DNA of 64,000 nt from a virus (lineage: Duplodnaviria > Heunggongvirae > Uroviricota > Caudoviricetes): the IMG/VR virus record IMGVR_UViG_3300017565_000017, positions 64,779 through 128,778 of that record; one strand, given 5' to 3'. A program made the translations under genes and the position numbers. How positions within the stretch are numbered: the first letter of the stretch is position 1; every line of letters begins with the position of its first letter. Below the pieces are notes generated by a model. It was not told where the DNA came from. It did no database searches and was given only the letters and a program-made list of their open reading frames with translations. Shown piece after piece: positions 4,030 to 63,174 of the stretch.

Positions 4030-5799
4030 TCATGCATTATCCAAGCGCTCCGGATTACCGTCGAGTTTGCGTTGGCGCTCTGCAAAGTGTACTCGCACCG
4101 TAAGATTGCGCAATCGGTTGTATCGAATCGGGGCTAGACTTAATGTATTGGGCAATCCACCCGTGGGTGTGATAGAACCGTCATCTGTGAATTGCACCGG
4201 TGGGCCGTTCAGTGTTGCCGGAATCGTGGCAATTAACCCAAGAGCTCCACCTTGGCGACCGTACACTCGATATGAAACTGCTCCAGGAACTTCATTCCAT
4301 GTGAGCTTAATTGAGTTGTTAGTTGCTGCGCCTGTGATCTGTGGGTTAATCCAGTAATTAGGAGGACCCGCATCCTGGGCATTCGTTACAGCCACTGAAT
4401 ACGAATATACCAGCGGTCCAAGTGTACCTGTTCCTGGAACGATCTCATAGGTAACGTTGGCGGCGCTAGGCGCGTTAACTGTCATTGGAGCGAGCGGGGC
4501 GTTGACAATAACGTAGCTAACCTGTCCTCGATTTGCCTTCTTAATAGCGACAATGATATCGCTATTAAAGTAATCTGTCATGAGGATTCCGGGCTGCGGA
4601 GCTAGCAGATTAACGATTGCCTGCTCGCTCAAAGCCTGCACTTGCGACAGAGTTGCCGTGTTAAACGCATACACGTCTACATCTATGTCACGATCAAGAG
4701 GAATAGCATCAAACCATACGAATCGGGTGCTGTACATAGTAACCCGCTGCATTTGGTCAATGAAGTCTTGGCGCTGGCCTTGTGTCCATGGGCTATCCGT
4801 TAGAGCACTAACGCGGATAACGTTCATGTACTGCAAGTCCATAGGGTCGATCTCGCGCTGGGCTTGCGTAACTGCGTCTACAATGCCTGGATACGTATTG
4901 ACCTGAGCAATGTATTGACTGCGAGTCACTGCACTCTGATACGTACCGAACGAGCCAGAGGCCACGTTCTTATATACGACCACATTCTTGACTCCAGAAC
5001 CCCCACTAGGACTGGTCGTTGCCGTTCCAGTAATTTGGGGGAACCCGTCAATGTTTACGCGCTTGCCTTGCGTAGCTGCGCCATTGCTGTCTGAGCCGTT
5101 GGTCACAACGTAAGTGACCGCTACGATGTCGTTTGTTTGTGGAACAGAACCAAAGCGGCTATTCCCGAACTGCACATTGAGGCGACCGTCTGGCAATGTC
5201 AAATCTGCAAAGGCTGGTTGACCCTTATAGTTCCACAGTACCCCGAATGACTTGTTGATGAGAGTTCCATTGATACGGACTTGGGTATCAATGTCGCTGA
5301 CGTTAAAACCGTCTTCTGGGCTGATGAATGTTTGGTAGTCTGAACCCAGGCCCGAGATCATAAAGGAGATTACAGAACCTTGAGCCAGTTCCACATTGAT
5401 AGGCTGACCTGCCGTCATCTCGACTTGCTCACGGTTGAAGAACTTAATTCCGCCGATGGTCATCTGGGTGTACGGGCTTAGGGTCAAACTCATTGTTGAG
5501 GTGAGTGACACCGTAATCTGGGCCGGTAACTTACGGGTCATGCGTAGACCCTGCATCGTAGTAATAGACCGGATTGCATCGTCTGCCAGTGCAGTTTCTG
5601 CAAAAGCGTCTTCTGACGAGCGGATGATCTTAGCACTATCCAGTGCCCCAACCGTCGAGATATACTCGATGATGGTTTGTGAGGTCTGGGTGGTCAGCTG
5701 ACCTTTCCAAGTACCCTTATTCCTCAGATCGTTGTTGAATTGGGTGATGAAATCGTCCACTTCAACGGTTAGGTCTGATAGCTTAAGAACTTCTGCCAT
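4030..5799 (-). CDS. Baseplate J-like protein (Mu gp47/P2 gpJ-like) with C-terminal fibronectin-III-like domain
   Basis: 589 aa from the ATG at 5799 (MAEVLK..), which has an AAGGA SD. The track's TTG start at 5826 is less likely. The gene follows the gp25-like gene as in Mu/P2 baseplates. C-terminal motif TWNEVPGAVSYRVYG is FN3-like. Confidence 0.5.
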   Translation of the reverse strand: MAEVLKLSDLTVEVDDFITQFNNDLRNKGTWKGQLTTQTSQTIIEYISTVGALDSAKIIRSSEDAFAETALADDAIRSITTMQGLRMTRKLPAQITVSLTSTMSLTLSPYTQMTIGGIKFFNREQVEMTAGQPINVELAQGSVISFMISGLGSDYQTFISPEDGFNVSDIDTQVRINGTLINKSFGVLWNYKGQPAFADLTLPDGRLNVQFGNSRFGSVPQTNDIVAVTYVVTNGSDSNGAATQGKRVNIDGFPQITGTATTSPSGGSGVKNVVVYKNVASGSFGTYQSAVTRSQYIAQVNTYPGIVDAVTQAQREIDPMDLQYMNVIRVSALTDSPWTQGQRQDFIDQMQRVTMYSTRFVWFDAIPLDRDIDVDVYAFNTATLSQVQALSEQAIVNLLAPQPGILMTDYFNSDIIVAIKKANRGQVSYVIVNAPLAPMTVNAPSAANVTYEIVPGTGTLGPLVYSYSVAVTNAQDAGPPNYWINPQITGAATNNSIKLTWNEVPGAVSYRVYGRQGGALGLIATIPATLNGPPVQFTDDGSITPTGGLPNTLSLAPIRYNRLRNLTVRVHFAERQRKLDGNPERLDNA

Positions 5800-5809
5800 G
5801 GTTGTGTCC

Positions 5810-6229
5810 TTATTGGGCCAGAACAAAGTCTTGCATACCTCGTTCCTGACTTATGTTTACTGTGTACGCCAGCCGGATTCTATATCCAGGAATTTGGAAA
5901 TCTGGCAGAACGGAAGTGCCTGCATAGTCAATTACTATGCGCGGCTCCCACCGTTCAATAGCTTGGATGAAACCCATCTGGACAAGAGTTGCTGTCCCGG
6001 AATCAATAGGCTCTTGCAGCAACTGATACAGAATCGATCCGTATGCCGGTTGGAACGTTCTAGAGCGGGCTCCGATGGGGCAGTTTAGTAGATTGAAGAG
6101 CGAGCAGTACGTAATGCTCTGCTCATCCGGCAATCTGTCTGGAAGCCCATTCATACCTAACAGGGTATTGACGTCAATCCATATAGCTCCGTCAAGTTGA
6201 AGCTGGTACGGAGTTAAAGGTGCTGCCAT
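5810..6229 (-). CDS. Baseplate wedge protein, GPW/gp25-like (lysozyme-like fold)
   Basis: 139 aa. GSILYQLLQEPIDSGTATLVQMGFIQAIERWEPRIVI matches the gp25/GPW signature (..AIErWEPRI..). Confidence 0.75.
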   Translation of the reverse strand: MAAPLTPYQLQLDGAIWIDVNTLLGMNGLPDRLPDEQSITYCSLFNLLNCPIGARSRTFQPAYGSILYQLLQEPIDSGTATLVQMGFIQAIERWEPRIVIDYAGTSVLPDFQIPGYRIRLAYTVNISQERGMQDFVLAQ

Positions 6230-52927: not shown

Positions 52928-53014
52928 CCCGGTTTATGGCAGGCGGGGATGGGATCGAACCATCGTCTGGGAATGACCCAGGTTTTGCCACGGCCCTCTG
53001 TCGGACCTCTAAAC
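52928..53014 (-). tRNA. Degenerate tRNA-like element (canonical T-arm and 3' acceptor strand, no matching 5' strand)
   Basis: 3' part GATGG-TTCGATC-CCATC-CCCGCCT-G-CCA is canonical. The 5' region GGTGCGG.. cannot pair with it. Likely a pseudogene or atypical RNA. Confidence 0.25.
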
Positions 53015-53144
53015 TACCGCACCTATAACTATCAGCCCTTATTGTCGGGCTTTTTCAGTGGAGCTCCACAGTGTGGGCAGTTCTTGTATCGCCACGTCGT
53101 GTAATTGCTGCATTTCGGGCAGACCATTGGAACTCCAGATAAAA

Positions 53145-60484: not shown

Positions 60485-61166
60485 GGGTGATCTTACACGA
60501 CCCCGAGCTCGAGATTCGCCCGCGATACATACAGATAGATGTAGCGCTGGTCTTCATCATCGGGGTCCGAAACCTCGTAACCGAGGTCTTCCGCCTTAAA
60601 CCGAACCGTCACCAAATGGGGTTCCGGAGGCTGTTGTTTGAACTCTTCTAGGGCCAATCCGACAGTCCCAGCTTCGACTTCCGCATGAGTAGCGGATTCT
60701 TTGATACGTTCGCGAATGCGAACTGCATACTGGCTGGATTCTTTGTCGTACATTGATGCCTTGTAAATGGAGGACCGGGAAACGCAGTAACCACCATACC
60801 CTCCGGGACATGACCCCCGTACTCTTTGGTTTTCCTTGTTCCCCTCGGGGCGCTACCCCGGGTCCATTGATCTTAGTGATCGAAGTTGATCTTACCGTCC
60901 TCTTGAGAACGCCATTCTTCGACCTGCTTGGAACCTTCCTCCGATTCCTCGTAGTCTTTACGAGCATGCGGGTTCAGGTCATCGTATTCATCTTTGGTCA
61001 CGAGGCACGCTCGATCTGCTTACGCGCAGCAAGCGCACGTTTGAAGGCAGGTGTCGGCTCTTTCGGGGCCGCTTGCAGCGCATTGACCAGTGCCTTGGAA
61101 TCGCGCTCGGACAGCTTGATGAGAACTTCCGGACTCTTGTTCATAACAACTCCAATGACTATGTAA

Positions 61167-61259
61167 TGGCGGATGGTGAGAGGGTCGAACTCTCAAGGCT
61201 ATTTCTAGCTCGGCGGTTTTCAAGACCGATCCCGTCGCCGACTGTCGGGTTGACCATCC
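61167..61259 (-). tRNA. tRNA-Ser(TGA), unusually long D-region
   Basis: Anticodon loop CTTGAAA, variable-arm hairpin GCTA-GAAA-TAGC, 93 nt. Confidence 0.65.
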
Positions 61260-62108
61260 TAGATCTTACTTCCAGCAGATCGCTGCTGGAATAGTTATCG
61301 TGTCGTAGGTAATCGGATGCTCCGATTCTACCCCACAGTAGTGCATCTTGCGTCCGGAAATATAAGAATCCTGACGCACGTTCAGGTAGACAAATTTCCA
61401 ACGCAAGCGTCTGGCTCGCATCTTCATGCTATTTCCTTCTGATCTTAATCACTGACAAGTAAAGACCACCTTTCGGCAGCCTTTCCCGTGCGAGCACCAC
61501 AGTGACCTTCCTTGATTTAGAATCTACTTCACGAACGACCTTTGGGCCTAACCGCTTCTGTCTCATCTTCATAGGAAGGTTTTTAAATTGGGGGTTGCTC
61601 AGGATTCGAACCTGAGTAATTTCCATGACACAGTCCCTAGCACCGAGAACCGTACATCACACACTGAGAGGTCCGACTTTCGACGAACATGAGCGATGAT
61701 CCCATAGCCTCGCGAGCGTCTCTGCGACAGCGGGCGTTTTATCCACTTAAACTATCAACCCATTGAAACTCTGGAGGACCTGTAAGAATCGAACTTAGCA
61801 ACCTCTGCGCACCCCAGCCTCACACCCTGACTCTCATCCAGACTCTCAACCCTGCTCCGCCGAGAGCCTAGGAACCTCTCGGATGGCTTTTAACCAGGAC
61901 GGATCTGTTGACGGAAATAGTTGACGGATGCTGTTGGTGGTAACTATAGCAGCGCTCTTCCCTTGAGCTAAGGTCCATAAACTTTCTTAAGATGGGACTC
62001 TGCGGGCCGGGCAGCAAAGGAGGGAGGCATGTGGCAGAAAGAACAAGACTAGAGGAAGACCTGAAGTCGACGAGCAGAGCCCCGACTTAAGAAAGTTATT
62101 TACGGTAA

Positions 62109-62385
62109 GAATGAATTGGTTCGGTCAGCCCTAGCCTCAGCTGGATATAATTTCGGGACTGTTGCCTCAACGTGTGTTGCAGAAAGTCTCTTGAGGTCCT
62201 ATCCTCGCAACCCCTAGCTCATCGTCATGTAGACTTCACGAACACCGTAACCGGAGCTAGCTCTAGGAGCTATCGAGCGGAACTGCCGTGTATGAAGTCG
62301 TGCGCACCGTACTCTAGCCAGTAGAGATATACCCGATTCGTTAGGAATCCATCGGGCTTTTTCTCAGGCTGACCGAACCAATTCA
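62109..62385. repeat. 22-bp perfect inverted repeat pair (GAATGAATTGGTTCGGTCAGCC / GGCTGACCGAACCAATTCATTC) spaced about 235 bp apart
   Basis: Left copy at 62109-62130, right copy at 62364-62385, both inside an ORF-free region. Confidence 0.8.
62328..62364 (+). terminator. Possible plus-strand terminator-like hairpin plus U-tract
   Basis: CCCGAT..ATCGGG followed by CTTTTTCT. Large loop. Confidence 0.35.
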
Positions 62386-62511
62386 TTCTAGTTGTTAAAG
62401 AGCGGGGTAATTAACGCGGCGTTTGCTTGTTTGCTGCGTTAATCACCATAAACATAATTATACACGCGCCAGTAAAACACGCAAGCGCTTTACATGGCTA
62501 AATTGTAACTG

Positions 62512-63174
62512 TTAGGCTTGCGTGTCCTGACCCTGACCTTGAGCTCGAGCTCGCGCTTCATACTCACGGACCATTTCATCGAACGCTTTCTTGCCCGCGT
62601 TGTACGCCTCTTCATGGGAAGTGAAGCGATGCGCAGCCAGCCATTCGGCGGTACGGGAGCTCGGGGACAACTCTTCCACCCACTCACCTGCAAGAGACAA
62701 GCACGAGCCAAAGGTATCACGAACAGCCCACGTCACGGCATTACTACTACGATTGACCCCCTTCTGTACCACAACGAAAATGAATTCCTTGTAGTCGAAG
62801 CGGAACTCCGATACGTCAGGAGCCCAGGTTTCCCAGGACATATACGCATGCGTCAAATGACAGTCTTCGTCATAGATACCTGCACGCTGCGATATGTACA
62901 ACGATTCCGCAGGAGTGTAGTCCCAGAGCTTAGGGCGCTTTTGAGTGCCGTCCGCGTTCTTAGTGCGGCGACCCTCGCGCCACAGAGCGAACGCGGCGCG
63001 TACAACGGGGTCTGAGTATAGTCCGTCCGGGTCGCGTTTGAAGTTGTCTTCGCCTTTCGGATGATCCGGAAAGGTATAAGCCCAATCTAGCTGGAAATAC
63101 TTACGATCAAAATACTGATCGTCTTTCGGATCGATGTATTCTTGCTCCGAGGCCGGTGTCTTTTCAATGCCCAT
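62512..63174 (-). CDS. Hypothetical protein
   Basis: 220 aa. Confidence 0.5.
   Translation of the reverse strand: MGIEKTPASEQEYIDPKDDQYFDRKYFQLDWAYTFPDHPKGEDNFKRDPDGLYSDPVVRAAFALWREGRRTKNADGTQKRPKLWDYTPAESLYISQRAGIYDEDCHLTHAYMSWETWAPDVSEFRFDYKEFIFVVVQKGVNRSSNAVTWAVRDTFGSCLSLAGEWVEELSPSSRTAEWLAAHRFTSHEEAYNAGKKAFDEMVREYEARARAQGQGQDTQA

Follow-up and report, generated by a model that had tools for sequence, protein, structure and literature searches.

A conserved, tRNA-related RNA region that probably forms the non-coding head of a jumbo phage tRNA operon

Here we describe a structured region, free of long open reading frames (ORFs), inside the tRNA gene array of a tailed phage. It is contained in a stretch of 64,000 nucleotides (nt) of the IMG/VR record IMGVR_UViG_3300017565_000017 (positions 64,779 to 128,778; hereafter, the window). 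On the comparative evidence set out below, this region is probably the non-coding 5′ head of a minus-strand tRNA operon, which would be antiterminated by Nus factors and processed by RNase III and RNase P. Read on the minus strand, it comprises a promoter-like site, a leader hairpin followed by a boxA, a structured module A, a long hairpin H, and two tRNA-like RNAs, B and C. The conservation of the region, its strand, its helices and its tRNA-like bodies can be read from the alignment of six lineages, and the identity of its boxA to that of the Escherichia coli rrnH operon from a comparison with the leader of that operon. An original prediction, drawn from the letters of the window, had placed a structured, tRNA-related and ORF-free RNA region inside the array, and both the ORF list and the covarying modules bear it out; several of its details are redrawn in what follows.

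Conservation and strand of the region

The window is phage-like in its gene content, encoding a tail fibre gene, an SLT lysin and AAA ATPases. With default settings, ARAGORN places 23 minus-strand tRNA genes between 46.5 and 63.9 kb of the window, and Rfam, at gathering threshold, finds tRNAs and no other RNA family in it. The ORF-free stretch is flanked by a tRNA-Ser(UGA) gene (61167-61260) and by the gene of a 220-amino-acid (aa) protein that ends at 62512. It had been described as devoid of ORFs of 60 aa or more, which holds inside 61627-62490, while a 65-aa ORF (61429-61626) touches its edge.

Relatives were retrieved from public metagenome assemblies through the neighbouring 220-aa and vWA proteins. 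Loci L001-L004 and L020 are identical copies of this phage, and five diverged lineages (L010/L011, L005/L009, L006-L008, L013-L015 and L012) make six together with it; the contigs of the relatives reach about 250 kb, and the phage would be of roughly 250 kb. All five diverged lineages keep the ORF-free stretch, with the same order of modules and roughly 71-83% identity, and L013 retains the RNA region where the 220-aa gene is absent. The stretch measures about 0.87 kb here, compared with 1.3 kb in L006 and L012.

The covariation of modules A, H, B and C lies well above that of both shuffled and slid-partner controls. Furthermore, among the paired cells of the alignment, G-U exceeds A-C by 54 to 5 in module A, 25 to 5 in B and 23 to 1 in H, and therefore the RNA is read from the minus strand, which is also the strand of the tRNAs. 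As judged from the aligned lineages, the inverted repeats of the region are RNA helices and not DNA-level elements.

Outside these lineages, a BLAST search of the region against a phage collection gave a match limited to the neighbouring tRNA-Ser, and nothing was found in Escherichia coli genomes and plasmids, in GTDB genomes, or by a protein scan and DNA-pattern scans of IMG/VR. A helix-pattern scan of JGI metagenomes recovered the same phage and no other. No close cultured phage was found, the top protein matches being to Burkholderia phage BCSR5 and Achromobacter phage Motura, with 29-35% identity. Further vWA homologues (P0006 and P0011) were also followed and set aside, for they led to unrelated phages.

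A leader with an rRNA-type boxA

The region opens with a promoter-like site (62457-62484, minus strand), read from the sequence as TTGCGT (62484-62479), a 16-nt spacer and TATAAT (62462-62457), which occurs once in the window. Its -10 element and the next 28 nt are invariant across the six lineages, with the exception of L005, where the element reads TACAAT. From this arrangement we infer a sigma-70-like promoter at 62484-62457, with transcription predicted to start near 62450.

A leader hairpin comes next, in the position of boxB (62406-62447, minus strand; inverted repeat I3), with the arms GGTGATTAACGCAGC ... GCCGCGTTAATTACC, each of 15 nt and 87% complementary. It is found in all lineages, with an invariant 5′ arm and a variable 3′ arm. 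The boxA itself, CGCTCTTTAACAA, occupies 62392-62404 (minus strand), and its 12-mer GCTCTTTAACAA is identical in 12 of 12 positions to the boxA TGCTCTTTAACAA of the E. coli rrnH leader. The hairpin sits relative to boxA as the rrnH leader hairpin does, the succession being hairpin, AAC and TGCTCTTTAACAA in E. coli, and hairpin, C and CGCTCTTTAACAA in the phage. The order of hairpin (62447-62406), boxA (62404-62392) and a helix arm that begins at 62390 fits an rrn-type antitermination leader, given the predicted transcript start.

The boxA is present once in the 64-kb window, where 0.24 chance matches would be expected allowing up to one mismatch. It is invariant in the six lineages, and each of 16 related phage loci has it once, in the same position. 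When the region was compared with the whole E. coli rrnH operon, boxA was the sole significant match; an rRNA origin of modules A and H was rejected, the match to that operon being limited to boxA.

At rRNA operons, the Nus antitermination complex is built up through boxB, boxA and boxC, and RNase III cuts the leader-trailer helices, of about 27-44 bp, that bracket the rRNAs (PMC10250234). Like such a leader, the phage locus presents a promoter-like site, a hairpin, a boxA, the 5′ strand of a long bracketing helix (26 bp here) and tRNA-type RNAs. Unlike it, the locus brackets an RNA of about 235 nt and a loop of about 65 nt without rRNA similarity, shows no recognised boxC, and belongs to a viral operon. 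Judged by this anatomy, the rrn leader would be the closest precedent for the mechanism, and the boxA leader alone, among the parts of the locus, can be assigned to a known class. For CRISPR arrays, which are long and untranslated, a boxA is likewise reported to prevent premature termination by Rho (Stringer et al., 2020; PMC7665894). In both cases boxA heads a long untranslated RNA array, whereas that of the phage is made of tRNAs and non-coding RNAs.

Two long helices, modules A and H

Module A is a structured RNA of about 285 nt (62104-62390, minus strand), closed by a 26-bp helix whose arms lie at 62390-62366 and 62132-62107. This closing helix is the inverted repeat of the original prediction, which is indeed perfect, and which extends over 23 nt (62108-62130 / 62367-62389) rather than over 22 nt at 62109-62130 / 62364-62385. 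RNAalifold predicts 77 pairs in the module, 22 of them with compensatory changes; 93.4% of the cells are paired, against 30-49% with slid partners, and none of 500 shuffles reached the observed covariation. Module A also holds a hairpin at 62357-31, where the plus-strand hairpin and T-run reported earlier are present (about 62332-62365), as well as the sequence GGGGTTGC followed by GAGG-ATAGGA-CCTC (62214-62190), which had likewise been correctly read. In this module GGGGTTGC pairs locally, forming helix 8 around the GAGG/CCUC hairpin, with compensatory changes in 8 of 13 pairs. Two invariant loops of module A, UCCUA and UAGGA, are mutually complementary.

The inverted repeat that closes module A could be taken as a DNA-level feature, namely as the boundary of a MITE-like insertion (miniature inverted-repeat transposable element), and the tRNA-like sequences next to it as decaying tRNA pseudogenes. 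Both the perfection of the 23-bp repeat, with arms 236 bp apart, and the presence of genes for HNH homing endonucleases in the arrays of relatives would agree with elements of this kind. However, the repeat is fixed at the same place in six lineages, has no second copy in the window, and has changed through compensatory and G-U substitutions on one strand, as an RNA helix does; of the marks of a MITE or transposon, neither other copies nor variable presence was found. Moreover, the inserted domains of B and C, described below, are under clear structural constraint, being conserved with 17-18 compensatory pairs each, which is not what decayed tRNAs would show. We thus regard both versions of a DNA-level origin as highly improbable, and treat the repeats as RNA helices.

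Module H (61979-62098, minus strand; inverted repeat I2) consists of a 27-bp stem and a C/U-rich loop of about 65 nt, with 27 pairs, 8 of them compensatory, and 95.7% of the cells paired. The motif CAUGCCUCCCUCCUUUGCU in its loop resembles the anti-Shine-Dalgarno (anti-SD) end of 16S rRNA, and is identical in four of the six lineages although their stems differ. The loop is antisense to a perfect SD and AUG; no complementary SD with AUG was found when the window, the retrieved loci and their flanks were scanned, save on its own opposite strand. There, at 62013-62052 (plus strand), a strong SD, AAGGAGGGAGG, stands before an ATG and a 7-codon ORF ending in TAG, and four relatives present a 19-codon plus-strand ORF at the same place, whose peptides are not conserved. 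Coding by the small ORFs of the H loop, on both strands, was rejected because their frames and lengths disagree between lineages; the plus-strand SD and ATG are probably a by-product of the anti-SD-like loop.

In four lineages, A and H are separated by a further structured insert of 170-269 nt, here called module I (11075-11239 in L005, 2767-3034 in L006, and equivalents in L012 and L013), which neither the window nor L010 contains. The insert is closed by GAAUCCCAUU.../...AAUGGGAUUC and has no Rfam match. A hammerhead-like CUGAUGAG...CGAA inside module I of the relatives was discarded, being neither conserved nor matched in Rfam.

Two tRNA-like RNAs with large inserted domains

The tRNA-like RNA B (206 nt; 61772-61977, minus strand) was called by ARAGORN with introns allowed and a lowered threshold. 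Its 6-bp acceptor stem, GGACCT/AGGTCC, contains two covarying pairs and is followed by an invariant U-CCA; the whole of GTCC-T-CCA is invariant, and this end has the N-CCA form of the true tRNAs in the window. The D arm reads GCTC-AAGGGAA-GAGC, with GG in its loop, and the T arm CTAAG-TTCGATT-CTTAC, with the loop TTCGATT; U8 and A9 are both present. From the anticodon stem (CTGC/GCAG) extends a branched domain of about 140 nt. In total, 49 pairs are formed, 18 of them compensatory: the base of the anticodon stem covaries among the module sequences (CTGC/GCAG, CCGC/GCGG, AGGT/ACCT and GAGC/GTTC), and a second stem is fully replaced from lineage to lineage (CACC/GGTG, TTCC/GGAA, GTTGG/CCAAC and CTAGAAG/CTTCTAG). 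One hairpin of the branched domain combines a covarying stem with the invariant loop GGUUCCUAGGC, and a loop of B carries the palindrome CCUAGG. The direct repeat that had been noticed, GTTGACGGA, does occur twice (61908-61916 and 61920-61928), as a lineage-specific duplication that is missing in L010.

The tRNA-like RNA C (173 nt; 61589-61761, minus strand) was called at the default threshold with introns allowed (61590-61761), and none of five shuffled versions of the window yielded an ARAGORN call with an intron. It has the acceptor stem GGGTTGA/GCAACCC, the D arm GTTT-AAGTGGATA-AAAC, the T arm TCAGG-TTCGAAT-CCTGA and the end C-CA(A), and a long, irregular, rod-like arm of about 120 nt, with three covarying helices, takes the place of the anticodon arm. 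Seventeen of its 39 pairs are compensatory, acceptor positions 5 and 6 among those that covary, and 92.8% of the cells are paired, against 39-46% when partners are slid. In both B and C, U8, the GG D loop and the TTCGAWT T loop are canonical, and an acceptor stem, a D arm with a GG loop and a TTCRANY T arm are combined, with covarying acceptor and T stems.

The T arm and 3′ acceptor strand of C (TCAGG-TTCGAAT-CCTGA-GCAACCC(CC), 61612-61590) had been recognised in the original prediction, where they were thought to lack a local 5′ partner and were joined to GGGGTTGC and the hairpin behind it, giving a single tRNA-like gene in two halves (62215-62190 and 61612-61585) some 600 nt apart. The partner is in fact adjacent, since the acceptor strand and D arm GGGTTGA-TA-GTTT-AAGTGGATA-AAAC lie at 61761-61736. 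The second T arm that had been reported exists as well, at 61782-61799 rather than at 61810-61835, and has a 5′ partner and D arm of its own at 61977-61951, so that each T arm is served from nearby. The remote complementarity of 8 bp, GGGGTTGC/GCAACCCC, is real and perfect in this phage, and the minimum-free-energy fold of the single 632-nt sequence 61585-62216, which spans parts of modules A to C, makes use of it; at z = -0.6, however, that fold is no stabler than shuffles. In five relatives 2, 5, 6, 6 and 4 of the 8 pairs are left, whereas the local acceptor stem of C keeps six of its seven pairs in all six lineages, with exchanges of T-A for C-G and of G-C for T-A, and the 5′ 8-mer is taken up by the covarying helix 8 of another module, A. 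We therefore give the split gene next to no probability.

B and C could still each be a decoding tRNA interrupted by an intron, of group I or of an unknown class, that is spliced out. Indeed, ARAGORN with introns allowed names them 'tRNA-Asp(gtc) i(39,78)' (61590-61761) and 'tRNA-Thr(tgt) i(32,121)' (61772-61976); introns too can be conserved and structured, and genes for an AAA_33 (kinase-type) protein and a PTH2 protein occur in the same region of the fetched loci. Yet no match at E up to 10 was obtained in the window, L006 or L010 with the Rfam models of group I introns (Intron_gpI), ribozymes, transfer-messenger RNA (tmRNA), RNase P, GOLLD or ROOL. The inserts, of 78-140 nt, are below the size of known group I introns, which are larger. 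Removal of the covarying inner domain leaves B with loops of 10-16 nt that share no anticodon, the 'anticodon' of C is GTC, GCC or GTC according to the lineage, and the intact tRNAs of the phage already cover all 20 amino acids (ARAGORN). Furthermore, the tRNA model RF00005 has no match in 61585-61980, either at gathering score or at E up to 10, and neither a 5-bp anticodon stem with a 7-nt loop nor a score of at least 29 bits was found. Because no common anticodon loop is left in B and C without the insert, and because 20 amino acids are served by intact tRNAs, these RNAs are, on the comparative evidence, non-decoding tRNA mimics and not interrupted tRNAs; splicing of B and C, or of the element X of the relatives, appears very unlikely to us.

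This element X is a third tRNA-like RNA, located between B and C in four lineages (2111-2213 in L010 and 3389-3511 in L006). It passes the Rfam tRNA threshold, with 52.6 bits in L010 and 40 bits in L006, where its anticodon arm carries insertions of 42 and 67 nt, and no CCA follows it, whereas almost every true tRNA of these phages is followed by one. In L010 its acceptor sequence (TGGGTCA) is similar to that of C, and this likeness would be the source of a weak match to the Rfam YrlA model, which in that one relative reaches 26.4 bits, against a threshold of 69, and spans the two adjacent elements.

CUAGG repeats are found at conserved positions of the minus strand in three of the RNAs: before the closing helix of A (62133-62140), in the hairpin loop of B (61835-61860) and in an internal loop of C (61630-61640). 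They may represent a shared contact site for a protein or for RNA.

A proposed mechanism

The arrangement described above suggests how the array may be expressed. The sigma-70-like promoter at about 62484-62457 would start a transcript whose first 60 nt mimic a bacterial rRNA operon leader, with its hairpin and exact boxA. The boxA would recruit the host NusB/NusE-NusA-NusG(-SuhB) complex, so that RNA polymerase would withstand Rho while it transcribes the RNA modules and then the array, which is about 16 kb long, with 23 tRNA genes and no ORFs but small ones. RNase III would then cut both long helices, the 26-bp helix of A, of the leader-trailer type, and the 27-bp helix of H, and RNase P together with the tRNA 3′-end enzymes would cut at B and C; the cleavage at B is proposed to create also the 3′ end of the A-H piece. 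Such processing would release stable non-decoding RNAs. In this scheme B and C would behave as natural 'tRNA scaffolds', in which the acceptor, T and D body provides processing, a CCA end and stability, and the activity would reside in the conserved insert, which is a branched domain in B and a rod in C.

Several observations weigh against this proposal. The -35 element of the promoter-like site is weak, with three of six consensus matches, which is why a consensus promoter scan did not list the site, and read-in transcription from upstream genes could equally be conceived. No boxC was recognised in the phage leader, and the boxA consensus (T/C)GCTCTTTAACAA, which the phage matches exactly, is assumed to be the proteobacterial one and may not be that of the host. 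The end of C in this lineage, C-CAA, is one C short of N-CCA. Finally, the single-sequence fold across modules A to C was no stabler than shuffles, and hence the case for structure rests on the comparison of 5-6 related lineages from one phage group. With these points taken into account, we still consider the head of a Nus-antiterminated tRNA operon to be the probable nature of the region.

A more ambitious proposal, which we put forward as a tentative one, is that B, C and X represent a class of viral 'tRNA-scaffolded' RNAs that had not been described before. Together with A and H they would make an ornate system, perhaps assembled through invariant loops that are palindromic (CCUAGG) or complementary (UCCUA/UAGGA), and acting on host translation or on tRNA-targeting defences, whose expression depends on a captured rRNA-type boxA.

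It has also to be considered that the whole stretch, or A together with H, might be one large 'ornate' RNA of the GOLLD/ROOL kind, an RNA-only multimer in which the tRNA-like parts are embedded rather than excised. GOLLD and ROOL occur near the tRNA islands of phages and prophages, tRNAs lie at times inside GOLLD, and loops of these RNAs build cages by kissing contacts (PMC12286853). The present region recalls them as a large (more than 500 nt), modular, covarying and ornate phage non-coding RNA in or beside a tRNA island, a likeness that concerns the setting only. Its size (0.87 kb here and 1.3 kb in L006 and L012) and the gain or loss of modules I and X between lineages would suit this alternative, and so would invariant loops that could kiss, CCUAGG in B and UCCUA and UAGGA in A. 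By analogy with the contacts that build the GOLLD and ROOL cages, the palindrome in the B loop would allow kissing; being invariant, these loops lie beyond the reach of a covariation test. Against it, neither RF01998 nor RF03087 is matched at E up to 10 (window, L006 and L010), the architecture is different, and tRNA-like bodies with CCA-type ends favour excision. On balance we deem a single embedded RNA rather unlikely. The possibility of a large tRNA-like regulatory RNA, one of several that the original prediction had listed, nevertheless comes close to what the evidence indicates.

Phage tRNA arrays are usually seen as mere lists of tRNAs. In this jumbo phage, the array appears to be operated in the manner of an rRNA operon, with antitermination at boxA, long helices for processing and punctuation of the tRNA type, and this style would constitute a concrete and testable answer to how a viral operon of some 16 kb, mostly untranslated, escapes Rho. 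The conserved non-decoding tRNA look-alikes with large inserts would, in turn, be natural counterparts of the tRNA scaffold and of T4 species 1 RNA. Since default tRNA finders and Rfam miss these RNAs, similar ones are probably under-reported in other large phages.

Relation to known tRNA-like RNAs

The species 1 and 2 RNAs of phage T4 (rnaC and rnaD) are, as B and C would be, non-decoding stable RNAs on the tRNA strand of a phage tRNA cluster, and the T4 genome record describes both simply as small, stable RNAs, to which it assigns no function. T4 rnaC is 139 nt long and shows a T arm of canonical form (CCGGG-TTCGAAT-CCCGG) as well as an end that resembles an acceptor. It has no recognisable D arm and stands at the 3′ end of its cluster, whereas B and C are larger and stand at the 5′ head; the sequence match with the T4 RNAs is limited to an 11-nt T loop, so that these are analogues of B and C rather than members of one class.

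With tmRNA and YrlA, the phage RNAs share a tRNA-like acceptor and T (and D) body bearing a large domain at the place of the anticodon arm. ARAGORN searches for tmRNA were negative, also at -ps90, and the Rfam tmRNA scores in relatives are only 10.9-18 bits. Moreover, unlike tmRNA, the phage RNAs lack a G3-U70 pair (3-70 being A-U in B and G-C in C) and a tag frame. The overall shape of C, a tRNA elbow with a long rod, resembles that of YrlA, from which it differs in its permuted strand topology. The Rfam YrlA model for this type of Y RNA has no match in the window, and the TROVE domain of Ro60 was not found in the ten largest ORFs or in the two neighbouring genes.

In the tRNA scaffold that Ponchon and Dardel engineered for recombinant RNA, an RNA of interest reportedly replaces the anticodon arm, and the tRNA enzymes process and stabilise the product. 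The layout of B, X and C is like that of this scaffold, which is, unlike them, a laboratory design. We know of no natural viral counterpart that has been described.

Neighbouring genes and other elements of the array

The 3′ boundary of the non-coding region is set, directly after C, by a small basic ORF of 47 aa (MKMRQKRLGPK...; 61429-61572, minus strand), in front of which no obvious Shine-Dalgarno sequence is seen. It is directly followed by a second basic ORF, of 53 aa, which also starts with MKMR (61427-61266, minus strand). As read from the alignment, both are conserved at the protein level in L005 and L010, and neither matched a Pfam family; these two small proteins may be partners of the RNAs.

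The true tRNAs of the window number 24, and CCA follows each of them except for two with an incomplete CC end. The 24th is the tRNA-Ser(UGA) at 61167-61260 (minus strand), with a long variable arm, which was missed by ARAGORN at default settings and by Rfam at gathering threshold; its one Rfam score, of 35 bits, is tRNA-Sec-like. It shows 83-84% identity to the annotated tRNA-Ser of many Aeromonas, Acinetobacter and Escherichia phages. A tRNA with a CUA anticodon (an amber suppressor that ARAGORN labels 'tRNA-Pyl') lies about 0.8 kb past the end of the window in the same phage (L001, 8414-8489), and also in L005 (7817-7892, where the Rfam tRNA model gives it 68.7 bits), and is located upstream of the operon headed by boxA. 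With a lowered threshold, ARAGORN also reports an 88-nt 'tRNA-Ala(ggc)' in a gap between genes of the array (52937-53024, minus strand), which could be another aberrant tRNA-like element.

Further along the array, a 48-aa ORF (60998-61144, minus strand) resembles the TacA1 antitoxin family (Pfam PF08681), with an E-value of 4.8e-5 that is above the cut-off, and a gene for a PTH2 peptidyl-tRNA hydrolase occurs in the array of the phage copies and of relatives. Taken together, these two genes hint at a counter-measure against tRNA-acetylating toxins of the TacT type. A few kb upstream of the RNA locus, L001 encodes a protein with an AAA_33 domain of the polynucleotide-kinase type (4678-6114), which has equivalents in L002, L005, L012 and L013 (477-478 aa across these loci) and may be an RNA repair or processing enzyme.

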